From Candidatus Zhuqueibacterota bacterium (lineage in GTDB: Bacteria > SM23-31), in NCBI GenBank assembly GCA_042564455.1, contig JBHPLC010000004.1, forward strand, positions 2,270 to 66,269: DNA of 64,000 bases, in the 5' to 3' direction. The notes under the pieces are model-generated. The model saw only the letters and a list, made by a program, of their open reading frames with translations. It was not told the DNA's origin and made no database searches. Within the stretch, counting starts at the first letter, position 1. Every line of letters starts with the position of its first letter. Position numbers and translations under genes: made by a program. Of the stretch, positions 2,866 through 61,640 are shown in pieces.

Positions 2866-3474
2866 ATGAAAAATTTAGACTTGAAAAAAATTGAGAAAAA
2901 GGCCTTCCTTTCCGTCTCTCAGGACGGACTATTCGATATCTTTATCGGGTATATGTTCCTGGTATTGGGTGTTAGCGGTCTGACTGAAGGATGGTTCCCC
3001 TCACAGGATGCTAATTCTATCGTTTCGATGGTGTTTATGCTGTCAGGCCCTGTGTTCTTCATGCTTGCCAAAAAGTTCATAATAGCCCCACGGATAGGTG
3101 AGGTGAAGTTCGGGCAGAAACGGAAAATGGCAAGGAAAAAAGTGATAATAATCCTGGCTTTATTTATCATTATTACTTCCCTTTCTGGCAATCTGTTTAT
3201 AAACGACACTCTTCCCAACAGCCCGTTAATGAGTTCTCTTACAATGGGTGTTGTCATTTTTATTCCGCTGTCGATTGCGGCTTATTATTTCAATAACACA
3301 AGACTTTACTTCACGGCATTTTTAGCTGCACTTGTTGAAGTTATGTATAATTATGCCGGCGGATATATCGGGATCTGTATTCTCGGTTCTGTAATAATTC
3401 TTATCGGGCTGACTGTTTTTATAAATTTCCTGAAAAAGCACCCGGTTCAAAATTTAAACCAGGTAAACATATAA
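2866..3474 (+). CDS. Polytopic membrane protein, unknown function
   Basis: ATG at 2866 preceded by aggag (2854-2858); the 2782 TTG start in the track is unlikely. Several hydrophobic helices. 4-nt gap to the downstream regulator gene. Confidence 0.6.
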   Translation: MKNLDLKKIEKKAFLSVSQDGLFDIFIGYMFLVLGVSGLTEGWFPSQDANSIVSMVFMLSGPVFFMLAKKFIIAPRIGEVKFGQKRKMARKKVIIILALFIIITSLSGNLFINDTLPNSPLMSSLTMGVVIFIPLSIAAYYFNNTRLYFTAFLAALVEVMYNYAGGYIGICILGSVIILIGLTVFINFLKKHPVQNLNQVNI

Positions 3475-3478
3475 TATT

Positions 3479-3778
3479 ATGGATGAAAATAACTTTATAT
3501 CAAGTATAGATAAGATAATTCACGAACCTGCCAGATTTATTATCCTGGCGAACCTCTACGTTGTGGAAAGCATGGATTACCTTTTTCTCCTGAACGCTAC
3601 GGGATTGACAAAGGGAAACCTTACTTCCCACCTGACAAAGCTCAGTGAAGCGGAATATGTAAAGATCAACAAGGAATTCAAGGGCAATAAGCCGCATACA
3701 TGGCTGAATATCACCGAAAAAGGAAAAACCGCCCTGGATAATTACCGGAAGATCATGCAGGAAGCGGTAAAGGATTAG
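3479..3778 (+). CDS. Small winged-helix (MarR/ArsR-like) transcriptional regulator
   Basis: 99 aa. 'LLNATGLTKGNLTSHLTKLSEAEYVKINKEFKGNKPHTWLNITEKG' is an HTH plus wing pattern. Paired with the upstream membrane protein. Confidence 0.65.
   Translation: MDENNFISSIDKIIHEPARFIILANLYVVESMDYLFLLNATGLTKGNLTSHLTKLSEAEYVKINKEFKGNKPHTWLNITEKGKTALDNYRKIMQEAVKD
3647..3778 (+). repeat. Direct repeat copy A (3' end of the regulator gene), duplicated at 7938-8069
   Basis: By-eye alignment: first 67 nt identical, 10 mismatches in the remaining 65 nt (122/132). Confidence 0.9.
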
Positions 3779-3948
3779 AAATCAGTTATTTAGATTATTT
3801 AGCCGGAATAATTCAGCTTATCTTCAGTTACTTTTTAAATCAAGTGCCATTTATAACAGTCTATTTATATTTGACGCACTGCAAACCATATTATTAAAGC
3901 AAAAAAGACACACAATTGCAATAATAATATTATTATTATATATTTTTC

Positions 3949-3977
3949 TTGACATTGTTAAATTATATATTTATATT
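3949..3977 (+). promoter_or_regulatory. Sigma70-like promoter candidate (TTGACA-17-TATATT)
   Basis: ttgaca at 3949-3954, 17-nt spacer, tatatt at 3972-3977. Lies in AT-rich DNA, so a chance match is possible; about 330 nt upstream of the first cassette gene. Confidence 0.3.
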
Positions 3978-4305
3978 GATATTGATTTTAAAATAACCAT
4001 GCGGTTCCCAACCTATTTTACTTTCCTTAATATTTCCGTAATAACCTATTGGTGTTGGCATAAATAACAGAAATTCTATCTCTTGTAACAGTCTAATTGC
4101 TTGTAGTTATATTCTTTACATCCGGGAATAGTAAGTTTTTTGATCCTGCTTCGACGACTAACACTCTTGTTGTGTTTTTGTCTGTCTCATATTCTCTTTC
4201 AGAGGCTGTAGTTTAGAAATTTCAGATACCGAAATTGCAAACAGATCTTATAATATCTTTAGAGTTTAAAAAGATACAACCTATTTTTTCAAAGGATGAA
4301 TTATT

Positions 4306-4704
4306 ATGGGAATAAAATTAAAGGAAGAAAATATTAAACTAACATTACGGATTTTGTTAGGTTTTATTTTCGCTTTTTCCGGAATAGCAAAACTGTTTTC
4401 GCCGGATTTGTTAATATCGAACCTCTGGCAAATCATTCAGCATGAAACACTCGTTACATTTGCGGTATATGTATTTAGCACTATTGAAATCATATTTGGT
4501 ATGATACTCATCATTTATGACTTGCGCCCGGTTAAGGTGACTGCAGTCTGTTCACTTCTTGTCTTTATAATTTATCTATCCTATAAAGTTATAACAAATG
4601 ATCCAAATTCATGTGGTTGTATGGGTGGTGTATTGCTAATGACTCATACTCAATCACTTATACAGGATCTTTTCTATTTAAGCGTGGGGATATATATCTT
4701 ATGA
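4306..4704 (+). CDS. MauE/DoxX-family redox-associated membrane protein
   Basis: Four hydrophobic helices. DoxX/MauE-like 'LRILLGFIFAFSGIAKL' and C-terminal 'NSCGCMGG' (the CGC motif typical of MauE-like proteins). RBS aaggatga upstream. Confidence 0.6.
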   Translation: MGIKLKEENIKLTLRILLGFIFAFSGIAKLFSPDLLISNLWQIIQHETLVTFAVYVFSTIEIIFGMILIIYDLRPVKVTAVCSLLVFIIYLSYKVITNDPNSCGCMGGVLLMTHTQSLIQDLFYLSVGIYIL

Positions 4705-5255
4705 AAAAAACAGCGGCATCTATTAAATATACTTTAATTATTGCTTTGTCATCACTGATTATTATTCTTTCAATCTTCAAGGCAATTAAAAGTATAGAAT
4801 TAAAAGTGAAAAGTGATAAAAATACTGTTAAGAGAATTGACTCTTTAAAACTCTACGGGCAGCAAATACCCAAGTTTGTTTTACAGAATAATTCCAATAA
4901 AACATCCATACCGGACTCCTGTAATTTTTTTCTACTGGCTGTAAACAATTTGACTCTGGTTGATTCTTTATCAATAAATAAATTGTTTGAGAAGTATACT
5001 GCGGGTAAATACAATGTCGATCTTCTTTTAATAACATCTGATAATAAAATATTAAAAAGTTCAGACCGGGGTATGTATTTATATGATCATACAAAGTTGG
5101 AGGATTTTCTTGATCTATCGGCTGATGATAACTTTACTCTTTTGACAAGTGAAAGTGGCCGCATCGAATATTTTTACAGGGCAATTCTTGGTTATGGTAA
5201 ACTTGAGGCATTGTTAGACAGATATAACAGAAAGGACGGTTTTGATGCGAGATAG
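4701..5255 (+). CDS. Signal-anchored protein, possible TlpA/MauD-like thioredoxin fold lacking the CxxC active site
   Basis: ATGA start/stop overlap with the previous gene (4701-4704). N-terminal TM helix. 'IPKFVLQN...SCNFFLLAVNNLTLVDSLSINKLFEKYTAGKYNVDLLLITSD' follows the TlpA-type strand/helix spacing, but no WCxxC is present. Confidence 0.35.
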   Translation: MKKTAASIKYTLIIALSSLIIILSIFKAIKSIELKVKSDKNTVKRIDSLKLYGQQIPKFVLQNNSNKTSIPDSCNFFLLAVNNLTLVDSLSINKLFEKYTAGKYNVDLLLITSDNKILKSSDRGMYLYDHTKLEDFLDLSADDNFTLLTSESGRIEYFYRAILGYGKLEALLDRYNRKDGFDAR

Positions 5256-6279
5256 ATTTCATATGTTTATCTATGCGCTGATTTTTATGGTTGTATTATT
5301 TGCCGGCTGTTCAGATCAGAGTGAAGAAAAATTTGTTTTCAACAAAGATAATATTTCAAAGTTACCGGTAGATGAAAAAAGACCTTTGAAATATGTTTCT
5401 TACGAGAATCAGGATAAGATCAGGCTTTTTAATCCCGGTATATTAAAATATAATCCTTACAACAATTTAATTTATATCTGTGATACGGGAAATCACAGGA
5501 TCGTAATCGTTGATACAGAATTGAACTATGTTGGTGAGTTTGGAAGATTTGGACAGGGACCTCAAGAGTTTAACGAACCTAACGGATTGCTTTTTACCGA
5601 AAACAGGATATTTGTTTCAGATATTCAAAACAGGCGAATGCAGGTTTTTGATTATGACTATAAAAATCAGTCGAGTTTTTATTGGAATAATATTTCATAT
5701 GTTGATTTTATGTGTATTAATTCTGAAGGCAAAATTATTCATAATAATCCTAAAGATCATGTGTTTGAGGTATTGGATCTAAATGGAAATAAGATTTCAG
5801 ATTTTGGAGAATTGGTTGCCACAAAAAACAATAGATTCAAGACACCGGAAAACGAACTTCGTTATGACATTGATCCTGATGATAATGTCTTCTGCACTTT
5901 TAAGAACCACCCAATGATCAGACAATATGACAGAAATTTTAATCTGATTTATGAAAGTGACGTGAGCTATATTCCCGGAGTGATCACAAGAACAGAATTT
6001 AACAAGAAACAAACACTGGAAAATCCGGGAAGATATTATACGAAATGGCTTAATGAAAGCCTAACCGTTGATGATAATTATATCTACATTCGTTTCAAAG
6101 AAAATGGGTATCCCATATATGTGTTTGAAAAAAATACAAGTCTGCCTGTTGAGAAAATTATACTAAAACCAAAAATAGATGAATTAATCGATTATGATTT
6201 CAAATATATAACCTTCTCTCCGAATTATCTTTACACCATCGATACAATAAATTTTGAGCTATACATGTACAAAAAATAG
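5245..6279 (+). CDS. 6-bladed NHL-like beta-propeller lipoprotein, paralogue 2
   Basis: ATG at 5245 with aggacgg RBS. Lipobox 'LFAGC'. 'FGRFGQGPQEFNEPNGLLFTENRIFVSD', 'MIRQYDRNFN', C-terminal 'FELYMYKK'. Confidence 0.7.
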   Translation: MRDRFHMFIYALIFMVVLFAGCSDQSEEKFVFNKDNISKLPVDEKRPLKYVSYENQDKIRLFNPGILKYNPYNNLIYICDTGNHRIVIVDTELNYVGEFGRFGQGPQEFNEPNGLLFTENRIFVSDIQNRRMQVFDYDYKNQSSFYWNNISYVDFMCINSEGKIIHNNPKDHVFEVLDLNGNKISDFGELVATKNNRFKTPENELRYDIDPDDNVFCTFKNHPMIRQYDRNFNLIYESDVSYIPGVITRTEFNKKQTLENPGRYYTKWLNESLTVDDNYIYIRFKENGYPIYVFEKNTSLPVEKIILKPKIDELIDYDFKYITFSPNYLYTIDTINFELYMYKK

Positions 6280-6308
6280 AACTTTAAAAACAAGGAAAGG
6301 ATATTTGT

Positions 6309-6593
6309 ATGTTAAGAAAAACAGCATTGATAATGATGACAGCTGCAATGCTTTTCTCAGTTGTAAGCATTGCATTTGCCGCAGGCTGTCCAATTACTGA
6401 GTCTTGTCCTCCTGATCAGGGAGGGGGAGCAATCAATTGTTCTTGTCGTGGAGCAGGTAACTGTACCTCACATAATTGTTCTCCGGCTGCTGGAGATGGA
6501 CCTGGAGAAGGAGAGATTTGTCACGTTGTCTGTGATTGCACCGGTGAAGATGACGACAGTGAAGCCTGGTGCGACGGAGAACAGCAAAACTAA
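6309..6593 (+). CDS. Secreted cysteine-rich peptide 1 (94-aa precursor, 10 Cys in about 70-aa mature part)
   Basis: Signal peptide MLRKTALIMMTAAMLFSVVSIAFA. Mature region C-x5-C-x10-C-x-C-x5-C-x4-C-x13-C-x3-C-x-C-x10-C with an acidic tail 'GEDDDSEAWCDGEQQN'. RBS aaggaaagga. Confidence 0.7.
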   Translation: MLRKTALIMMTAAMLFSVVSIAFAAGCPITESCPPDQGGGAINCSCRGAGNCTSHNCSPAAGDGPGEGEICHVVCDCTGEDDDSEAWCDGEQQN

Positions 6594-6660
6594 TCTTTTG
6601 TGTATTATTGTACTAATAAATAACACGTTTCCATTAACCAAATTAAGAAAGGATGTTTGT

Positions 6661-6945
6661 ATGTTAAGAAAAACTGCATTGATTATGATGACAGCTGCAA
6701 TGCTCTCTATAATATCCGGCATTGCAATAGCACATTCCTGCATCATTGAAAAACCCTGCCCACCTGAACAGGGTGGTGGTGTGATACAATGCGGCTGTCC
6801 GGCGGGGGGTAGTTGTAGAGCATTTAATTGTTCTCCGGCTGCTGGAGATGGACCTGGAGAAGGAGAGATCTGTCACGTTATATGTGATTGTACAGGTGAA
6901 GATAACGACAGTGAAGCCTGGTGCGACGGAGAACCGGAAAACTAA
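6661..6945 (+). CDS. Secreted cysteine-rich peptide 2 (tandem paralogue, 94 aa)
   Basis: ATG at 6661. Same length and an identical 10-Cys spacing. The C-terminal half is nearly identical to peptide 1. Confidence 0.7.
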   Translation: MLRKTALIMMTAAMLSIISGIAIAHSCIIEKPCPPEQGGGVIQCGCPAGGSCRAFNCSPAAGDGPGEGEICHVICDCTGEDNDSEAWCDGEPEN

Positions 6946-6984
6946 TCTTTTTCCCTGTTGAATCAAAAATATCTATCATGTTGG

Positions 6985-7017
6985 ACAAGACCGAAATATA
7001 AATTATTCCGGTCTTGT
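6985..7017 (+). terminator. Weak hairpin after the peptide genes
   Basis: acaagaccg (6985-6993) pairs with cggtcttgt (7009-7017); 15-nt loop; followed by ttatatata. Confidence 0.3.
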
Positions 7018-7079
7018 TATATATAAGCTCAATATCCCGAATTACTGTCTATGACAATCATTTTTCGAAAGATAAAGTC

Positions 7080-7925
7080 ATGAAAAGGATTAACATTATA
7101 GTCTTCACTTTTGTAATTGTGGCTTTTATATTAATGATACGATGTTCCGGAAATAAAAAGGAATTTAAAAACGCATATCCTGTTTTTCCATCAAATGGTT
7201 CATTGGTTCTTGCAGGCGGTGGCCGCATTAATACTGAAATATATAAAGAGTTCGTAAAATTAGCTGGAGGAAATGAAGCTAAAATTATTATAATCCCAAG
7301 CGCCGATCCCATACAATTTCAGAAGAACAGTCTTTACGCTGAAAATGAATTCAAAAAGATTGGAGCATTAGATTTATATATACTTCATACCACTGATAAA
7401 AGTATGGCAAATTCGAATGAGTTTGTCGAAGTACTAATAGGTGCTTCCGGTGTTTGGTTTACCGGCGGCTGGGAGTGGCGGATAACAAGAACATATCTAC
7501 ATACAAAAGTCCACAAAGAACTTACGGAACTGTTGAAAAGAGGAGGTGTGATCGGCGGGAATTCTGCCGGAGCCTCAGTTTTAGGTGAATTCTTAATTTC
7601 CGACAGGCTTGAAAGTAACATCAGTGAATCTGAATGGGATTTCAATGGATTTGGATTTTTAAAAAATGCTGTAATTGATCAGCATATGAACAGAGATGAT
7701 AAATATGAAACATTTGCCGGTTATATGCGAGAATTGCCTCATTTATTTGGTATAGGTATAGATGAGAATACTGCGTTGATTATTAGTGACAATAGTATGA
7801 GAATAATTGGAGAAGATAAAGCTACGATATATAACTATTTCGCTGATTCTCTCAAAATAAAAGAGGATATTAATTATTATTTTCTCTATCCGGGAGATTT
7901 CCTGTTTTTTGACAATGTTAAATAG
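7080..7925 (+). CDS. Peptidase S51 / cyanophycinase-like (type 1 glutamine-amidotransferase-like fold), signal-anchored
   Basis: ATG at 7080 gives an N-terminal hydrophobic helix. 'LVLAGGGRI', 'IIIIPSA', 'VWFTGGW' and the nucleophile elbow 'GGNSAGASV'. Confidence 0.65.
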   Translation: MKRINIIVFTFVIVAFILMIRCSGNKKEFKNAYPVFPSNGSLVLAGGGRINTEIYKEFVKLAGGNEAKIIIIPSADPIQFQKNSLYAENEFKKIGALDLYILHTTDKSMANSNEFVEVLIGASGVWFTGGWEWRITRTYLHTKVHKELTELLKRGGVIGGNSAGASVLGEFLISDRLESNISESEWDFNGFGFLKNAVIDQHMNRDDKYETFAGYMRELPHLFGIGIDENTALIISDNSMRIIGEDKATIYNYFADSLKIKEDINYYFLYPGDFLFFDNVK

Positions 7926-7937
7926 TTAATATTAAAA

Positions 7938-8069
7938 GAAGCGGAATATGTAAAGATCAACAAGGAATTCAAGGGCAATAAGCCGCATACATGGCTGAAT
8001 ATAACAGATAAAGGCAAAACCGCCCTGGACAATTACCGGAAGATCATGCAGGAGGCAGTCGGGGATTAG
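7938..8069 (+). pseudogene. Orphan 3' fragment (44 codons plus stop) of a winged-helix regulator gene; direct repeat copy B
   Basis: Would encode EAEYVKINKEFKGNKPHTWLNITDKGKTALDNYRKIMQEAVGD*. No upstream coding part. Starts 12 nt after the S51 gene stop. Followed by the palindrome ccactaattagtgg (8071-8084). Confidence 0.8.
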
Positions 8070-8177
8070 ACCACTAATTAGTGGATTATTAAGAAAAAAC
8101 TCATTGTTAAATTTGCATGTATTCTTCTCTAAGTAGTAAGTCTTACATTCAAAATCTTTGAGGAAAACATCGGTTTT

Positions 8178-8843
8178 TCAGTCTTCTTCTTTATCCTTCC
8201 GATGTTTGATAACGGTTCCTGAAACGATGTACATTACATCTTCGCAAATGTTTGTGGAGAGATCTGCGACTCTTTCGAGGTTGCGTGCAATTCTTATCAG
8301 GCTGACACACCTTTCTATTGAAGATCTGTCTGTTTTCATATATTCGGTTAGTTTTAACAGGATCGAATCTCTGAGATCATCAACAATTGAATCCCTGTCG
8401 CAGACGGTCTTTGATAACTCTGTATCCTCCTCAATGAAAGATGTTATACTGTCGTGTAACATTCTTAACGCTTCGCTCTTGATCTTCAGTATATCATCAT
8501 TAGCTATCGAGATCGGAGGTTTATTGATCAGGAACAGGCCGCTCTCGCTGATATTGACCGCCTGGTCACCAAGCCTTTCAAGATCATTATTCATCTTATA
8601 GATCATCAGAACTGTTCTCAAATCCTTTGCTAATGGCTGAAACTGAGCAATAAGCGCTGTACATTTCTCTTCGACTTCAAGCTCATATTCATTTGCCTTT
8701 GGCTCATCTTCATTTATTACCTCATGCAAAATATCGGGCTGATTATTAAGCAATCCCTTAATGCTTTTCGAGATCATATCTTCCACGAAAGTGGCAAACA
8801 TTACAAGATCTTTTTTTAGATTGTTTATTTCTGTATTCAGCAT
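8178..8843 (-). CDS. phoU: Phosphate signalling complex protein PhoU
   Basis: 221 aa with a two-repeat helical PhoU-like sequence. Immediately downstream of pstB. Confidence 0.85.
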   Translation of the reverse strand: MLNTEINNLKKDLVMFATFVEDMISKSIKGLLNNQPDILHEVINEDEPKANEYELEVEEKCTALIAQFQPLAKDLRTVLMIYKMNNDLERLGDQAVNISESGLFLINKPPISIANDDILKIKSEALRMLHDSITSFIEEDTELSKTVCDRDSIVDDLRDSILLKLTEYMKTDRSSIERCVSLIRIARNLERVADLSTNICEDVMYIVSGTVIKHRKDKEED

Positions 8844-53777: not shown

Positions 53778-54010
53778 AAATCTGTGTTTTCATCTCCTCC
53801 GTCTGTACTGCTAAGCGTAATCTGAATTTAAAGGTTAGAATCAGAACCTGATCCCGCAAATGCGGGATAGGGTGATATTATTTCATTTTGATTTCATAGT
53901 AATATCTTTTTTATTTCCCCTTTAGAGGGTGACTTCCCTTTTTATTCCCCCTTGGTTCGTCCTGCCTCGCCGGTAGTTCCTGGAACGCCAAAGGCGACTG
54001 GCGGGTATGC

Positions 54011-54145
54011 GACCTTTGAAGGAGAACCTCTTTTAAATTCCCCCTTGGTTCGCTTACAGCGACCTTTGAAGGAGAACCTCTTTTAAATTCCCCCTTGGTT
54101 CGCTTACAGCGACCTTTGAAGGTGAACCTCTCTTAAATTCCCCCT
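54011..54145. repeat. 50-bp tandem repeat, about 2.7 copies
   Basis: gacctttgaaggagaacctcttttaaattcccccttggttcgcttacagc at 54011-54060 and 54061-54110 (identical). Partial third copy with 2 substitutions from 54111. Confidence 0.9.
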
Positions 54146-54246
54146 TTGAAGGGGGATAAAGGGGGATGTTATTCTTTAAAAATATGGCATTCTATATTTT
54201 GATAATACATAATATTCAGAATATAATATAACTGTAAATAACTTCG

Positions 54247-54730: not shown

Positions 54731-55675
54731 CTATTTAAAACCGTCTCCTTTTATCAATCCAAGTTCATAAACATAATTTCCTGTTTTAATGTCTTCATCT
54801 ACATAATAATATGGCCAATTTTTGTTATCCAATAGATCTTCAGTAATATTGAATGAGGAATCCGAAACAAATACGCCTTCTTCGGAAATTTCATTAAGAG
54901 GAATATTCAAACTTTCCGGCCATTTTACCGGACGTATGCCTTTTTTGATTCTCAGATAAAAACCTGAAGATAACTCGGAATAGGTTTTGGAATAACCTCC
55001 ACTACTGTTTATTTCATATAGCAGATCCCCTTCAAAATACATGACTTTCTTATCACTTAGATAATAATCCTTGAAGTGGTTGAATATTTCCTCCGAGACA
55101 TACACTCTTTCATAATTGTAATCCGAAAGCTTTACAATATCACTGAATGGCCATTCTTCAATCAGAATTTTCTCTTTTAAGCAAACTTTTCCGCAATCAA
55201 CATTTTCTTTCAAATTTTCAATTATTATTTCCAGTTCATTTACTATATTTGAAATGAAACTAAAATATTCAGAATGTCCATACATAGTTACAGTATTGCT
55301 TTTTACCTGTGATATATATGTTATTTTATATACAAAGGCATCCATTATTACAGTAGATTCATAATACTCATCCAGGCTTAAAAAATTATAATATTGAAGT
55401 GTTATTAAGATATGATTTATAATGTTTTGGGAAAGTGTGCTCTGAATGTCAAATTCCTGATTTTCAAAAGTGACACTATTATCGTTATAGATCCTAAGTG
55501 TTTCTGTGATACCCCCAATTCCGCCTCGCAAGACATATTCCAGAAACACTTTTGGACTTGGTTCTTCATCTGTAGCTTCAGCCGGATTTGTCGGATTGGA
55601 CGTGCAATTTAAATTTACAATCATTCCTACAGATATTATCAACAAAACAAACTTCCGTACAAAACTAATTTTCAT
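54731..55675 (-). CDS. Exported/lipoprotein-like hypothetical protein (N-terminal domain paralogous to 56582..57109)
   Basis: 'MKISFVRKFVLLIISVGMIVNLNC'. 'LRIYNDNSVTFENQEFDIQSTL' aligns with 'LKIYNNNIVTYECREINIQSEL' of the paralogue. Confidence 0.55.
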   Translation of the reverse strand: MKISFVRKFVLLIISVGMIVNLNCTSNPTNPAEATDEEPSPKVFLEYVLRGGIGGITETLRIYNDNSVTFENQEFDIQSTLSQNIINHILITLQYYNFLSLDEYYESTVIMDAFVYKITYISQVKSNTVTMYGHSEYFSFISNIVNELEIIIENLKENVDCGKVCLKEKILIEEWPFSDIVKLSDYNYERVYVSEEIFNHFKDYYLSDKKVMYFEGDLLYEINSSGGYSKTYSELSSGFYLRIKKGIRPVKWPESLNIPLNEISEEGVFVSDSSFNITEDLLDNKNWPYYYVDEDIKTGNYVYELGLIKGDGFK

Positions 55676-55711
55676 TATATTAACTCCCTATAAAATTTCA
55701 TAGCGCTCTAC

Positions 55712-56554
55712 CTACCGAATTGAGTATTCCATTTTCATACCAAAAACATAATTAACAAGATCTCCAAAATCTTTGTCCAAAGGTATCTGAAAAAACATCC
55801 CCGGCTGAATGCGGTAATTCTTTAACTGAGCTCCAAAAGTAACCACTTCGAATGACCTGTTATATGTTTTTTCTGTCGCAAGATATCTGCTTAATACTTC
55901 CGTTAATATTACAACTTTTTCAAAATTATATCCTATCATTCCGCCATAATGAAAATACAATTCCGGACCTCGCGAATCCCTAATCTCTGAATAAGGCATA
56001 TAAACTCTTGGATTAAATTCCAAACCGATTGTAAAACCATTATCCATAATTTTCCGGTAACCATAATCGATAGAAATTGTTGCCATTTCATGAGTAACCT
56101 TATTAATATTCATCAAATCGGTCAGTTTTCCTACATAAAGAGTTTCTTTTGCTGTAGGAAGATACATACCGATTCCAAGCCTCCAGCCACCATCCGAATT
56201 CATTCCTTTATTAGACTGTATCCCTACATATATGTTACCAATCTCCGTCCCGCTTCTGTCGGCAATATTACCTGGTTCCGATGGAATGCTATAATATTCC
56301 AACGGTATTGAAACAATAAAATTCACTTCTCTTAACGGAATACTTGCGTAAATATCAATAAGACCTGACGCATGAGAATAATCACGAAAAATATCACTAA
56401 AATTGCTATCAATTGAGGGATGCATAAATGAAATTCCGATTTTGGCTTTTTCCCCCGGAAAGGGCTGCATCAGAAATGTCTGTGCAGACAAGTTTGAAAC
56501 AAAGTTAAAGCAAATTAATAATATGCTCAACGATAAAATCCTTTTAAATATCAC
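55712..56554 (-). CDS. Putative outer-membrane beta-barrel protein
   Basis: Signal peptide ending 'NLSAQ'. Alternating hydrophobic beta-strand pattern throughout; 280 aa. Confidence 0.45.
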   Translation of the reverse strand: MIFKRILSLSILLICFNFVSNLSAQTFLMQPFPGEKAKIGISFMHPSIDSNFSDIFRDYSHASGLIDIYASIPLREVNFIVSIPLEYYSIPSEPGNIADRSGTEIGNIYVGIQSNKGMNSDGGWRLGIGMYLPTAKETLYVGKLTDLMNINKVTHEMATISIDYGYRKIMDNGFTIGLEFNPRVYMPYSEIRDSRGPELYFHYGGMIGYNFEKVVILTEVLSRYLATEKTYNRSFEVVTFGAQLKNYRIQPGMFFQIPLDKDFGDLVNYVFGMKMEYSIR

Positions 56555-56581
56555 AAAAATCTCCTGTTTTTCTTTTAGAAA

Positions 56582-57109
56582 TTATGGTATCATTACATCG
56601 TCAGAATAAATTGAACTGACTTTTAGAATATATTCTTTCCCGCCATCAGCATTCTCTTTCATATACTTAATTATTGAGTTCAACTTACCTAAAATACCTG
56701 AAATAAACTGCATACCTTCTGATTCGCTTTCAACATACACAGTATTACCATTATATGATATTTTGAAAGAAGGTATGTCCGCCCATCCGTAAGCTATATA
56801 ATGACCCGACATACAATTGAAATCGCTATTTTGAAACGTATTTACCAGATTATCAATCAAGTACCGCGGCAGTTCACTTTGTATGTTAATTTCACGACAT
56901 TCATAAGTAACAATATTATTATTATAAATTTTAAGCTTTTCCCGCATACCCCAGCCGCTATAATATTCATACTCAAGCAGTATAGCCGAAGGAGACAGCT
57001 CTTCCGATGTTTCGACCGGGATCAACGGATTGATCATGCATTGCAGATTGACGATCATTCCAACAAATATTATCAACAAGACAAATTTCAGTAAGTATCT
57101 TCGTTTCAT
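56582..57109 (-). CDS. Exported/lipoprotein-like hypothetical protein (paralogue of the N-terminal part of 54731..55675)
   Basis: ATG at 57109 with GAGGG RBS. 'MKRRYLLKFVLLIIFVGMIVNLQC'. Confidence 0.55.
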   Translation of the reverse strand: MKRRYLLKFVLLIIFVGMIVNLQCMINPLIPVETSEELSPSAILLEYEYYSGWGMREKLKIYNNNIVTYECREINIQSELPRYLIDNLVNTFQNSDFNCMSGHYIAYGWADIPSFKISYNGNTVYVESESEGMQFISGILGKLNSIIKYMKENADGGKEYILKVSSIYSDDVMIP

Positions 57110-57125
57110 TTTACCCTCAAATATG

Positions 57126-57947
57126 CTATGATATAAAATGCTGAGTTTTTGAAATAATATCGCCGGTAGTTGTGTCGACATATAAGGACCAGCCGATCAT
57201 CGATTCAAACCATATCGGCACTTTCCAGCATACATGAAGTTCGATAGAATTTTCCTTTTTAAATGGGTAGATAACTTTTTCAGTTATATCCATAATATCA
57301 GATTTATCAACAATAAATAATTCCTCACCGCTATGACTATGCCATCTTATCTTACGGCCAACAGAAAGCTCTCCGGCTTCATCGGCGCTTATTTTGTCAA
57401 TTCGTGGAATATTGATATCTTTATACCAGAAACCGTCAATATTAAAAACACCGTCACCATAAAGTAAAACTTGAATTCGTGCCCCGATAACTTCAAGTCC
57501 ATGATAATTCTGACGTCTGAAATATACGCCCCAGTGAGTTTTCTCATCATTTGAATAACGTATCTCGTATCCGCACTTTTCCAGTTCTAATGAATTTTGA
57601 ACATTTGTAAACTTACTGTTTTTTATCAGCGTATTAATGGCAATTTCAATCGCCTTATCTTCTGAAATAACTATTCCCGGATTATCTCTGAGGGCAAAAT
57701 CCCTGCCGGTCAGTCCGAATTTATTTAATCTTGAACGTATTTTGTTATTGTTCAATATATCAAATTCTGTCTGGAGTTTTTCCAATTCTTCCGATGACAG
57801 AGCTGAAATTGCCTTCGGATATACAAAATCAACACTATCTGATTCTGATTCAGGTGAAAGTATCCTGTCCAAACCGCAATTTACGGCAGTCAGACACACC
57901 AGCAGCAAAAATATCAGTGTTAGATTAGATGTTACGCGCAAACTCAA
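57126..57947 (-). CDS. Lipoprotein with two PepSY/propeptide-like modules (tentative)
   Basis: Lipobox 'AVNC'. 'ISEDKAIEIAINTL...' and 'ISADEAGELS...LHVCWKVPI...SLYVDTTTGDIIS' resemble PepSY-type inhibitor/propeptide domains. Confidence 0.35.
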   Translation of the reverse strand: MSLRVTSNLTLIFLLLVCLTAVNCGLDRILSPESESDSVDFVYPKAISALSSEELEKLQTEFDILNNNKIRSRLNKFGLTGRDFALRDNPGIVISEDKAIEIAINTLIKNSKFTNVQNSLELEKCGYEIRYSNDEKTHWGVYFRRQNYHGLEVIGARIQVLLYGDGVFNIDGFWYKDINIPRIDKISADEAGELSVGRKIRWHSHSGEELFIVDKSDIMDITEKVIYPFKKENSIELHVCWKVPIWFESMIGWSLYVDTTTGDIISKTQHFIS

Positions 57948-58121: not shown

Positions 58122-59255
58122 CTATTTCTCCACGATATTATACACGTAAAAACGCATGCTGTAACGTTTCTCAAGAATATAGATCTTGTTGCCGATGACT
58201 CTTATTCCGTCGCAGAACTGCTTGAGCTGATAAGCATTCAAAAAAACACCGTTTTCATCGTAAAGATACAGTATATAAGCATCGGTCTCAAGTTTATCGT
58301 TTTTGCCCGAACTCGCATCTGCTCTTTCCTCTGTGCTTAATAGTCTTTTTTTTGTCAGAAACCACATTCTGCCTTTTGGATCAACACTAAAGCCAGCAGG
58401 CATTTTTTCACTTTTGATTGTGACTTCTTCGATTCCCTCATCCGGATCTACAGGCCTGTTAGTCCTGAAAATCTGTGTGCCGTCAGGGCGGAATTTCTCA
58501 AGCCGGTTCTGCCATAGCATTACGGTATATACATTGTCTTTAATGTCGACGTCGTAAAACATTCTGTTTAATCCGGTTTTCCATTCGAGTTTTGGTTTAT
58601 ATATCGTGGCCTCACCGAAACGTCTTAATATATTACCTTCCCGGTCATGAATATGAATCAGCGGCATCCAAGTCTCTTTGCCTGGTTCAGGTCTAAAGCG
58701 GTTGATGTTTTCAGTGGCTATATTTTTCATCACAATTTCGCCTGTCTGCAGCGCCCTGACATAGTCTACATATGGGGCATATATCTTAATAGTGCCTGTA
58801 TATTTGCCTTCACTGGTGAGGATCTCAAGGCGGTCGTTAGAAAAATTCGCCACGTAGATGTTATCGCTTCCACCAATATCGATAGATAAGGGCCTTAAAA
58901 ATTCTCCCGGACCCTGGCCATTACGGCCGATTGTGTGAATATACTTGCCGTTCGGATCAAATTTCTGTATACGGAAATTGCCCGCATCAAGGACATACAG
59001 ATTCCCTTCGGAATCTCCGGCAATATCGGCAGGATTGTAGAACATATAGTTTTCATCTTCCGACTCGAGTTTTCCCAAAAATCCTTCGAATATGAGTTCA
59101 ATCCGCGGCTCATCCCCCCAGAGTGCAGCGTGGTTGTTGATATGCCTGACTCCATCTATAACCTCAACAGTGTATGTTTTATCCTGTGCAACGGACATTC
59201 CCTGAATAATGCAGGTAAACAAAAGCGCTATTACAAAAAAACCGGAGGTTTTCAT
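58122..59255 (-). CDS. 6-bladed NHL-like beta-propeller protein, paralogue 3
   Basis: ATG at 59255, 2 nt after the stop of paralogue 4. Signal peptide. 'IGRNGQGPGEFLRPLSIDIGGSDNIYVAN', 'NRLEKFRPDG', C-terminal 'YVYNIVEK'. Confidence 0.7.
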   Translation of the reverse strand: MKTSGFFVIALLFTCIIQGMSVAQDKTYTVEVIDGVRHINNHAALWGDEPRIELIFEGFLGKLESEDENYMFYNPADIAGDSEGNLYVLDAGNFRIQKFDPNGKYIHTIGRNGQGPGEFLRPLSIDIGGSDNIYVANFSNDRLEILTSEGKYTGTIKIYAPYVDYVRALQTGEIVMKNIATENINRFRPEPGKETWMPLIHIHDREGNILRRFGEATIYKPKLEWKTGLNRMFYDVDIKDNVYTVMLWQNRLEKFRPDGTQIFRTNRPVDPDEGIEEVTIKSEKMPAGFSVDPKGRMWFLTKKRLLSTEERADASSGKNDKLETDAYILYLYDENGVFLNAYQLKQFCDGIRVIGNKIYILEKRYSMRFYVYNIVEK

Positions 59256-59257
59256 TA

Positions 59258-60355
59258 CTATTTCTCCACGATCTTGTATTGATAAACGCACATATTTCCA
59301 CGAGTATCGATCAGATACATATGATTTTTGAAAATCCGCATGAAATCAAATCTCTGTGGTGCAGCCACAGTCTGTAATAAATATCCATCCTCACTAAATA
59401 TTTCAAAATATACATAATCCTGAAATTCCATATCTGCTTCTTTTTGTTTTTTGTAAGTAATTACCCACAGTCTATTATCATTATCAATATCAATTCCCAG
59501 CGATACTACAGGCGGGATTGCTACAATAACTGTCTCACCTTCATCATTTTCAAATTGTCCAATTTTCTTGGGGCTCACATCGAAATTTACTTTTCTGTCG
59601 GTTCTGAATATAAGGTCTCCGTTTTTTGTATATTTTTCAATTCTATTTTGTCTCATAAATGATGCATAAATTTCATTGTTCTCTGAAACACAAATACCGA
59701 TACGATTGCCATCGAAATTAGCGCTAAAATTTCCAAAATCATCACTTTTACCGAAAGTTTTCAACTCTTTCCCGCTGAAGTCGTATATAGCAATCAAAGG
59801 AGGAGTGCTATTTTTCAAACCGGCTGCAGTCCATACAACAAAACTGTTGTCACTCAAAATCCGAAATCCTGTCATTCCCCTCTGAAAGGACATATATTCT
59901 TCAAACTTCCCTTCATTTGAGAATATTTGAATTCTACGTCCGGAAGCAGAAGCAACATATATATTTCCCTGATCATCTATATCCCCGCTTATATAAGTTG
60001 GAAATTCACCCGGCCCCTGGCCTTTTCTGCCAAAACTAAGCAAGAATTCCCCTCTGGAGTTGAATTTCTGTACCCGGGAATTGCCGGAATCAAATATATA
60101 TATGTTCCTTTCTTCGTCTTCCAAAACATCACGTGGCTCGTAAAATTGATAGTTCTTACCCTTTTCATCCAGTTCCCCGATAACCTGAACTAATTTCAAT
60201 TCAATTTTCTGCTCATCCCCCCACATCGGTTTTTCATTATGTATCAGCCTGATACCATCTTTTACTTCAACAGTGTACGTTTTCCCCTCCTGTCCGAAGC
60301 AAATACCTGAGAACAGAAAAAGCACCAGAATGACGATGCAAATCCCATATTTCAT
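59258..60355 (-). CDS. 6-bladed NHL-like beta-propeller protein, paralogue 4
   Basis: Signal peptide. 'FGRKGQGPGEFPTYISGDIDDQGNIYVAS', 'NRIEKYTKNG', C-terminal 'YQYKIVEK'. N-terminus 'KTYTVEVKDGIRLIHNE' matches paralogue 3. Confidence 0.7.
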   Translation of the reverse strand: MKYGICIVILVLFLFSGICFGQEGKTYTVEVKDGIRLIHNEKPMWGDEQKIELKLVQVIGELDEKGKNYQFYEPRDVLEDEERNIYIFDSGNSRVQKFNSRGEFLLSFGRKGQGPGEFPTYISGDIDDQGNIYVASASGRRIQIFSNEGKFEEYMSFQRGMTGFRILSDNSFVVWTAAGLKNSTPPLIAIYDFSGKELKTFGKSDDFGNFSANFDGNRIGICVSENNEIYASFMRQNRIEKYTKNGDLIFRTDRKVNFDVSPKKIGQFENDEGETVIVAIPPVVSLGIDIDNDNRLWVITYKKQKEADMEFQDYVYFEIFSEDGYLLQTVAAPQRFDFMRIFKNHMYLIDTRGNMCVYQYKIVEK

Positions 60356-60386: not shown

Positions 60387-61640
60387 TCACTTCCCGCCTG
60401 CCCCTTGCAGTCTGGGGCCTGCCCCTTGTTTTTTGGCGTACACAGCCTGGTCGATACTGTATTTTTGGATCACAGGGAAGCCTTCATCATTCTTCCCTAT
60501 CCTGTAAACATATCCGTTCTTAATGACATCGGGAATAAAATCAAAGTACGCCGAACAGGTATACTGCTCTTTGTCAGCATCAAAAACATCCGCTAAAATA
60601 TCACCTTTGTTATTGGTCGTGTGGGTAAATGCAAAAATGTGGTTTCTGTCCGTAAGAAGCGACTTCAGGGGGGTGAAGTACTGCGTTTCATCCAGAATAT
60701 CCTCGAATTGATTTGCTGCAATTTCAAAAATATCGGCGTCAGTTCCCATACTTCCCATTTCTTTAACTTCTTTTAACGTATTGTAAAAAGCTTTTTCCAG
60801 AGAATCTGGTATTTCAACTCTTGTATATGTATTTGACAGTTTGATACTTTTCCGGTCACTGAGAGAATATATGTTCAGAGAATAGGAAGATTTCTGATCT
60901 TCCCGGACAGAGTCAAAATACGGATGCGTAAAAACAACCCTGTCCCTGCTCATTATATCCCACAATAGTGTCCCGTTGAAATACAGATTTACGCCCACTA
61001 TTCCAACACTTATTTGCTTAACATTTTTGTAATCTGTGACCTTCTCAATATTTTCTCCGTTTTCATACCACAACATATGAGACTGGGTATAAAAATCTTC
61101 AGGATCCTTATAATAAGCGAATCCTTCAAGGATCTTAACCGACTCGTTAAAATAACACCCTTTTTCTTCGTAAAGGTTTCTCAGGCCGAGTTCATCGAGG
61201 AATGTGTCGTATTTCGGAATGTTTTTCAGTTTTTCAGACTTGATGAAATCATGACCGGGAGAAAAAAGATTAAATCCTTTCTTATCATAAATGGAAATGT
61301 ATCCTGTCGGGCTGATCTTTGGAATGCTCCTATAGGTAAAATCAAATTCACCGGGTCCTTCACCGGGTTTTCCGATGATACTTCTTTCTTTCCCGTTTTT
61401 GTCAAAAACCTTGATCCTGTCCTCATCGGAAACATAGATGTCGCCCTTATAACTGACGGCAATACCGGTCGGTTTAGCAAGCAGAAACTCATCCTGAACG
61501 TTCTCAGCCCCGAATTCAAGCTCCAGTTTCAGAATATCGTCTAATATGACAGGTGAATTGTTCTTTGCCGATTCCGGGGGTGAGCTGCAGTTCGTTATTA
61601 ATTGTAAGAATAAGAAACTCAATAAGAGATGACTGCGCAT
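60387..61640 (-). CDS. 6-bladed NHL-like beta-propeller lipoprotein, paralogue 5 (divergent, with C-terminal Gly/Ala/Gln extension)
   Basis: Lipobox 'ITNC'. 'IGKPGEGPGEFDFTY'. C-terminal 'IQKYSI' followed by 'DQAVYAKKQGAGPRLQGAGGK', which is encoded by a GC-rich imperfect direct repeat. Confidence 0.6.
   Translation of the reverse strand: MRSHLLLSFLFLQLITNCSSPPESAKNNSPVILDDILKLELEFGAENVQDEFLLAKPTGIAVSYKGDIYVSDEDRIKVFDKNGKERSIIGKPGEGPGEFDFTYRSIPKISPTGYISIYDKKGFNLFSPGHDFIKSEKLKNIPKYDTFLDELGLRNLYEEKGCYFNESVKILEGFAYYKDPEDFYTQSHMLWYENGENIEKVTDYKNVKQISVGIVGVNLYFNGTLLWDIMSRDRVVFTHPYFDSVREDQKSSYSLNIYSLSDRKSIKLSNTYTRVEIPDSLEKAFYNTLKEVKEMGSMGTDADIFEIAANQFEDILDETQYFTPLKSLLTDRNHIFAFTHTTNNKGDILADVFDADKEQYTCSAYFDFIPDVIKNGYVYRIGKNDEGFPVIQKYSIDQAVYAKKQGAGPRLQGAGGK

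Follow-up and report, generated by a model that had tools for sequence, protein, structure and literature searches.

How did the 3' end of a single regulator gene come to stand twice in one stretch of DNA, with a complete operon between the two copies? The question is raised by a 64-kb segment (64,000 nucleotides, hereafter the window) of contig JBHPLC010000004.1 (positions 2,270 to 66,269) in the GenBank assembly GCA_042564455.1 of a Candidatus Zhuqueibacterota bacterium, in which an intact gene for a winged-helix regulator of 99 amino acids (aa) (3479..3778, forward strand; HTH_34, PF13601, Pfam E = 1.5e-22) is followed by an AT-rich spacer, a cassette of six genes and an orphan copy of the regulator's own 3' end. 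An earlier note on this DNA had called the arrangement island-like and proposed that the cassette was acquired by recombination. Our analysis indicates that the observation is real and that it represents a fairly ordinary insertion scar of the known displaced-3'-end kind, with no identifiable mobile-element enzyme. The best reading, to which we give a little less than an even chance, is that host recombination, with the regulator gene as its anchor, displaced the 3' end.

The duplicated gene end

The two copies form a direct repeat of 133 nucleotides (nt) on the forward strand, 3647-3779 (copy A) and 7938-8070 (copy B), which match without gaps at 123 of 133 positions (92.5%) and whose starts lie 4291 nt apart. 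Copy B comprises 43 codons and a TAG stop, and it begins 12 nt past the stop codon (7923-7925) of a peptidase S51 gene, the last gene of the cassette; a small palindrome and the convergent phoU gene follow, and the coordinates bear out the placement given in the earlier note. The repeat reported there and its 10 mismatches also hold, but the identical leading stretch proved on alignment to be 65 nt and not 67 (3647..3711, the same as 7938-8002), the first mismatch falling at 3712/8003. The window contains this block exactly two times and none of 100 dinucleotide-preserving shuffles contains it, and the window has no second dispersed repeat of at least 45 nt.

The two edges of the repeat are of different kinds. 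On the left, homology ends abruptly at 3647/7938, beyond which ungapped DNA identity is at chance level; a tblastn alignment that seemed to extend copy B back to 7872 was rejected on that ground, being the S51 C-terminus read through its stop codon. On the right, homology tapers off about 24 nt beyond the stop codon of the regulator (14/30 matches, p = 0.03), such that weak homology links the first ~24 nt of the spacer to 8071-8094, and both copies share GATTATT, a run of 7 nt, past their stop (p = 0.002). Such weak homology past the stop is as expected for two orthologous gene ends.

The mismatches are distributed very unevenly along the repeat, with 0/65 in the leading block against 10/68 in the tail (Fisher p = 6e-4), and uniform scatter would leave so long a mismatch-free run at the start with p = 5e-4. 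The tail of copy A (3712..3779) contains the last 22 codons of the regulator, the stop codon and 1 nt, and is 85% identical to that of copy B. The natural reading of this split would be an exchange point close to the place where the earlier note had put a crossover (3713/8004), its position now being moved to 3711/3712.

Nine codons differ between the tails, seven of them synonymously and the other two by the replacements E80D and K98G, and Nei-Gojobori estimates of synonymous (dS) and non-synonymous (dN) divergence are 0.82 and 0.06 for the tail and 0.34 and 0.03 for all 43 codons. If both copies had drifted neutrally, at least 7 synonymous changes out of 10 would arise with P = 0.001-0.006, and with P ~0.02 under drift of the orphan alone and continued selection on the gene; the synonymous count is fully compatible with selection on both tails. 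Because of this synonymous bias, and because copy B is free of indels, with frame and stop codon retained, we conclude that the tails diverged mostly within working genes, be it in different lineages or as two functional copies, and were juxtaposed only later. The GC content of the two tails at the variable sites (3/10 vs 6/10 overall, 3/8 vs 4/8 at third positions) involves too few sites to assign the foreign tail.

The cassette as a newcomer

The 527-bp AT-rich spacer and the six-gene content described in the earlier note were both recovered here. The spacer (3779-4305, or 3780..4305 after the repeat) is non-coding, with 27.5% GC and stops in all six frames, and the genes identified behind it encode a MauE/DoxX-like membrane protein, a thioredoxin-fold protein of 184 aa, a beta-propeller lipoprotein, two Cys-rich peptides and the S51 peptidase. 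In all six genes the G+C content at third codon positions (GC3) is 0.29-0.34, against 0.42 +/- 0.06 in the rest of the window (1.5-2.2 standard deviations below the mean), and the regulator lies at the window's high end (GC3 = 0.53), so that GC3 steps down from regulator to cassette. This composition shift is suggestive of a foreign cassette, not decisive.

Stronger evidence that the cassette may be a newcomer is provided by the occurrence of the operon in other contexts. A profile of the 184-aa family retrieved two metagenome contigs, L008 and L009, with the same core order, in which the related operon (L008:807-5011; L009:5266-9387) consists of MauE, a member of the 184-aa family, a DUF5128 propeller, two small secreted Cys-containing open reading frames (ORFs) and a second propeller-like protein. 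The propeller of the cassette is 33% identical to that of L008, compared with 24-29% to the four other propellers of the window. The genes next to the operon are unrelated ones: L008 has rodZ, maf and a gene for a protein with a type IX secretion system tail, L009 has an ABC transporter, and neither operon is accompanied by a recombinase or by flanking repeats.

The relatives of the regulator keep a different company. Upstream of the regulator lies the gene for a membrane protein of 202 aa (2866..3474, forward strand), with no match in Pfam or NCBIfam, and this pairing is conserved: a membrane protein of ~150-204 aa together with an HTH_34 gene, as at 2866-3778 in the window, recurs at L001:9513-10291, L002:742-1956, L003:7448-8381 and L011:5284-6232, while L010, in which the regulator stands at the contig's end, is uninformative on the upstream pairing. 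The closest homologues of the regulator found in a protein search are 64-67% identical to it, and at five related regulator loci the genes downstream are unrelated. Since the core of the cassette has other neighbours elsewhere and the regulator's relatives have other genes downstream, regulator and cassette do not form an ancestral unit.

Gene conversion in a second strain

Further information on the locus came from an exact look-up of the second Cys-rich peptide, which led to a contig of 2257 bp (L004) in the metagenome-assembled genome (MAG) GCA_042563365.1, assigned to candidate division KSB1, now Candidatus Zhuqueibacterota. L004 corresponds to window 5928-7910 at 99.5% identity and then to window 4713-4431 in inverted orientation; it departs from the window sequence 28 nt before copy B and reaches neither repeat junction.

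Over these 1983 nt the two strains differ at nine positions, all in the first peptide gene (window 6309-6593, L004:382-666), and 8 of the 9 correspond to the base found in its tandem paralogue, the second peptide gene, 352 nt further on. Patchy, strain-specific gene conversion between the twin peptide genes thus operates at this locus, and a homogenised tract of 65 nt in the regulator repeat would therefore be unremarkable here.

At the point of departure (L004:1975-2257) positions 7902-7910 are joined to 4713-4431 through a 9-nt inverted microhomology, CTGTTTTTT / AAAAAACAG. The inverted 3' region of MauE replaces the last 15 nt of the S51 gene, and the junction lies just past a small hairpin at 7891-7904. 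Two origins are conceivable for this junction, a true inversion of 4714-7910 and a chimeric end of the contig.

Origin of the repeat

According to the reading that we favour, the incoming segment would have carried the regulator's last ~22 codons, in a diverged allelic form, with ~24 nt of downstream sequence, the 527-nt AT-rich spacer with its promoter, and an operon for exported peptides (MauE, the thioredoxin-fold protein, the propeller, the two Cys-rich peptides and S51). It would have entered the resident regulator by host homologous recombination, with the exchange at 3711/3712, while its far end would have been joined illegitimately at 7937/7938. The regulator would thereby have been left intact as a hybrid, and one 3' end would have been shifted 4.29 kb downstream, where it became an orphan beside phoU. 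The 65-nt block would then represent resident sequence on both sides of the insert, or else a heteroduplex or gene-conversion tract, and the 68-nt tail would record the divergence between donor and resident alleles, of which either could be the foreign one. The direction of transfer, the choice of the foreign tail and the enzymology are the parts of this scheme that we infer.

The advantage of homology-anchored displacement is that it would yield the mosaic in one step. In a reciprocal exchange, either site-specific or of the Campbell type, the mismatches between copies A and B would follow the donor/resident pattern, and the 65-nt block would therefore need heteroduplex repair or a later conversion. 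A route through host recombination, whether by displacement of the 3' end or by a Campbell-type crossover combined with heteroduplex repair, fits the data at least as well as site-specific integration.

Several points weigh against displacement by host recombination. The divergence statistics rest on a small sample of 10 substitutions. No empty site, donor allele or genome with regulator plus cassette was found, the nearest relatives being just 60-67% identical; relatives of the PhoU protein reach at most 60% identity, there is no regulator after phoU at the nearest PhoU locus, and an exact-protein look-up of PhoU gave no match. The L008 and L009 operons have no HTH_34 neighbour, so that the donor arrangement of regulator and cassette is unobserved. 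In the compositional comparison that the earlier note had suggested, GC3 is distinct in all six genes, but the relative synonymous codon usage of the cassette is no outlier and low GC3 is found also in genes at 54.7-57.9 kb of the window. Duplication of the 65-nt overlap would call for a sister copy or else for a circular intermediate combined with heteroduplex repair, and one-step homology-facilitated events normally delete recipient DNA. Finally, the junctions 7937/7938 and 8070/8071 are without independent read support.

The strongest competitor, although a rather unlikely one, is integration of the type known from e14 and phage 21, in which an attachment site (attP) carrying a replacement 3' end of the regulator would have been used by a tyrosine or serine integrase that has since been lost or acted in trans, as in cis-mobilizable elements, the first 65 nt being homogenised later. 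In anatomy and numbers the locus nearly equals the icd/icdC repeat of e14, both repeats being 92-93% identical, cut off sharply at the 5' edge, strongly biased towards synonymous change and followed by weak similarity beyond the stop codon. An att core would be expected at the 5' edge, and it is there that the identical block is found; the gene conversion documented at the locus could supply the homogenisation. Nevertheless, mismatches begin at offset 65 here and at offset 11 in e14, such that an extra event is needed, and the enzyme is missing. Consistent with the earlier note, which had seen no integrase, transposase or excisionase in the window, none of the corresponding Pfam domains was detected in a scan of 57 ORFs with a length of 70 aa or more; the six genes between the repeats all have non-recombinase identities, with no integrase or excisionase among them, and the spacer, whose six frames are full of stops, showed no gene remnant, no hidden Markov model scan of those frames having been made. 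The L008 and L009 operons, without recombinase or flanking repeats, speak against such an element as well, as does the absence of relatives of the regulator or of the S51 protein from viral contigs. The earlier picture of an island-like insertion acquired by recombination is partly supported, by the replaced-3'-end anatomy, which is e14-like, the exchange point suggested by the mosaic, the distinct composition, the presence of the operon elsewhere and the lack of a recombinase in the window, whereas a mobile-element island is not shown, given that there is neither a recombinase nor a short att-like core and that no empty site or circle junction was found.

Synonymous-biased divergence is also what two long-functional paralogues would display, and copy B could accordingly be regarded as the remnant of a second regulator from a tandem membrane-protein/regulator module, which lost its 5' part by deletion, the cassette having lain between the two modules and the 65 nt having been homogenised later by the gene conversion that occurs at the locus. 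We consider this origin quite improbable: a tandem second module is present in none of the five related loci, tblastn revealed no further piece of the regulator or of the upstream membrane protein in the window, the edge of homology lies merely 12 nt past the S51 stop, and the composition shift points to the cassette as the newcomer.

A perfect block next to a diverged tail would be produced as well if the 3' end had been duplicated in situ when the cassette was inserted, and one tail had afterwards been overwritten by an import from a diverged relative ending at 3711/3712 or 8002/8003. Such an import would account for the synonymous bias, as the imported tail would come from a working allele. 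Two independent events are required, however, and we know of no mechanism for a target duplication of 133 nt, which leaves this scenario only a slim chance.

The contig could, lastly, be an artefact in which the assembler mis-joined two strains or molecules through the 65-nt block, for instance an empty-site chromosome and a 4.29-kb circle. The contig belongs to a MAG, the same assembly-graph nodes permit an alternative path, and L004 leaves the window at 7910, 28 nt short of copy B, into the inverted 4713-4431 segment. The organism is present in only two public sediment runs, X1 and X2, at ~2-5x, with Logan contigs of ~150-240 nt in this region; none of these contigs lies on 7882-8400, which is left without independent cover, and none shows the joints, an empty-site junction or a circle junction. 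On the other hand, a 176-nt contig from X1 equals 3761-3936 exactly and independently links five A-specific tail positions to the spacer, and a 4.3-kb circle without a replication gene is implausible as a replicon. The sister runs have reads of 151 nt, so that a single read spans the 65-nt exact repeat with unique flanks, and the fusion of the S51 end to copy B must exist in some molecule under either path; we therefore rate an artefact as very improbable.

Three further candidates were rejected: duplication in place followed by decay, which is ruled out by the mosaic and the synonymous bias; a genomic island in a tRNA gene, as the window contains no tRNA or tmRNA gene; and a phage or satellite origin, in view of the negative result with viral contigs.

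The diverged repeats could also serve as the termini of a shuttle that needs no recombinase. Exchange by RecA inside the 65-nt block would free a circle of 4.29 kb, consisting of the tail, the spacer with its promoter, the operon and the 12-nt linker, and this circle could re-enter the HTH_34 gene of any related member of Zhuqueibacterota (KSB1) by a single crossover. We regard this as a long shot; if true, the 3' end of the regulator would be a homology 'address' for an exported Cys-peptide operon.

Genes and sequence features around the repeats

The first gene of the cassette encodes the MauE/DoxX-like membrane protein (4306..4704, forward strand as for all cassette genes; PF07291, E = 1.3e-15), and a predicted sigma-70-like promoter at 3949-3977, the best in the region with 11/12 matches, is directed at the cassette from within the spacer. 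The membrane-anchored thioredoxin-fold protein of 184 aa (4701..5255) has no CxxC motif and belongs to a small unnamed family of 24 cluster representatives with 20-30% identity. Its AlphaFold2 model is of modest confidence (predicted local distance difference test score 62), and the top Foldseek matches in the PDB all have TlpA, ResA, DsbE or peroxiredoxin folds, with TM-scores of ~0.45-0.5. The third product is an NHL/DUF5128-like six-bladed beta-propeller lipoprotein (5260..6279), and it is followed by the tandem genes for secreted peptides with 10 Cys residues (6309-6593 and 6661-6945), which are 94 aa each and share 71% identity. These peptides had no homologue outside their own pair in a search of 5.8 billion proteins, and are thus unusable for tracing the cassette. 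The last gene (7080..7925) encodes the cyanophycinase-like peptidase of family S51 (PF03575, E = 6e-21), which scores 124 bits against TIGR02069, slightly below the cut-off; in the window's version of the operon it occupies the place of the second propeller of L008 and L009.

Because MauE and MauD form the disulfides of the methylamine dehydrogenase small subunit, it is reasonable to suppose, by analogy, that the MauE-like protein, the thioredoxin-fold protein and the propeller may mature or handle the Cys-rich peptides.

The deposited annotation lists copy B as a protein of 46 aa, P0189 (MLKEAEYVK...), at 7929-8069 with a non-canonical ATA start, and this protein is the representative of the 90% cluster that contains the full regulator. 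The perfect 14-nt palindrome behind copy B, CCACTAATTAGTGG (8071..8084), could form a weak hairpin that is not a convincing terminator, and the junction hairpins are no more stable than those of shuffled sequences; as the palindrome occurs only once in the window, it was also rejected as a repeated operator. An Rfam scan of the spacer and junctions gave only sub-threshold chance matches. The phoU gene (8178..8843, reverse strand; PF01895, E = 5e-38), convergent on copy B, is the last gene of a pst-phoU operon, with pstBACS upstream.

The two-gene module of membrane protein and HTH_34 regulator spans bacteria and archaeal MAGs, with a match of 59% identity in Thermoplasmatales, and with Promethearchaeota among the matches listed; scanning genome contigs with the regulator yielded one archaeal MAG, at 59%.

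Five paralogues of the DUF5128/NHL six-bladed propeller are encoded in the 64 kb (981-2192, 5260-6279, 58122-59291, 59258-60355 and 60387-61640). The three that stand in tandem at 58.1-61.6 kb adjoin four low-GC ORFs without a Pfam match (54731-57947), two of which, 54731-55675 and 56582-57181, are paralogues with 42% identity. Beside this low-GC block there is a 50-nt tandem repeat (54009-54158) with two perfect copies, a third at 80% and a further copy at 53916 with 60% identity. Tandem repetition was also observed in L008, where ~14 copies of the 10-nt unit TTTCGGTTCA (L008:582-729) stand directly 5' of the MauE operon.

Significance and comparison with known systems

The phylum, formerly candidate division KSB1 and now Candidatus Zhuqueibacterota, has barely been sampled; the locus would place and date an acquisition within it, and it marks the operon of MauE, thioredoxin-fold protein, propeller and Cys-rich peptides as accessory, probably transferable cargo. 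As a single instance it is a modest, well-behaved example; if the route proved general, homology-anchored displacement would be an under-counted means of gene gain, missed by island finders that are keyed on integrases and tRNA genes.

Among integrase-less elements, a parallel is offered by the cis-mobilizable elements (CIMEs), which are flanked by att sites, encode no integrase and depend on a related integrative and conjugative element to supply one, as at the 3' end of fda in Streptococcus thermophilus. They resemble the present locus in being integrase-less inserts between direct repeats derived from the 3' end of a coding gene, but their repeats are short att cores of ~27 bp, whereas here the repeat is of 133 nt.

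In E. coli K-12 the element e14 sits between icd and the icdC pseudogene, having integrated into the 3' end of icd (PMC13626634). As with e14 and phage 21, the coding gene used as target stays whole through its replacement 3' end, and the orphan stands at the far junction. When measured on the E. coli K-12 record, the icd/icdC repeat was found to span 165 nt, of which 12 are mismatched (92.7% identity); of its changed codons 9 are synonymous and 2 non-synonymous, and dS and dN are 0.36 and 0.016. These values are close to the 133 nt, 92.5%, dS 0.34 and dN 0.03 of the regulator repeat, and in both cases homology sets in abruptly at the 5' edge and leaves a faint trace beyond the stop. The differences concern the cargo and the mosaic, as e14 is a 15-kb prophage with intE and xisE, compared with 4.2 kb and no recombinase here, and while the e14 copies differ from offset 11 onwards, at sites scattered along the repeat, the copies here agree perfectly for 65 nt and differ in the tail alone. 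A perfect block of 65 nt is not what a fixed-core integrase leaves.

Homology-anchored insertion leaving orphaned 3' regions has been described for rhs and for the effector-immunity loci of type VI secretion systems (T6SS), and C-terminal displacement at rhs, contact-dependent inhibition (CDI) and T6SS loci has been proposed to proceed via homology-facilitated illegitimate recombination (PMC5361080, citing Jackson et al. 2009). Similarly to those systems, the locus has an anchor of homology in a resident gene, new cargo behind it, the old 3' end downstream with a conserved piece attached, and no element-borne recombinase. The rhs, CDI and T6SS loci are, however, polymorphic toxin genes with several orphans and immunity genes, whereas here the anchor is a small transcription factor, the orphan is single and the cargo is an operon putatively devoted to the maturation of secreted Cys-rich peptides.

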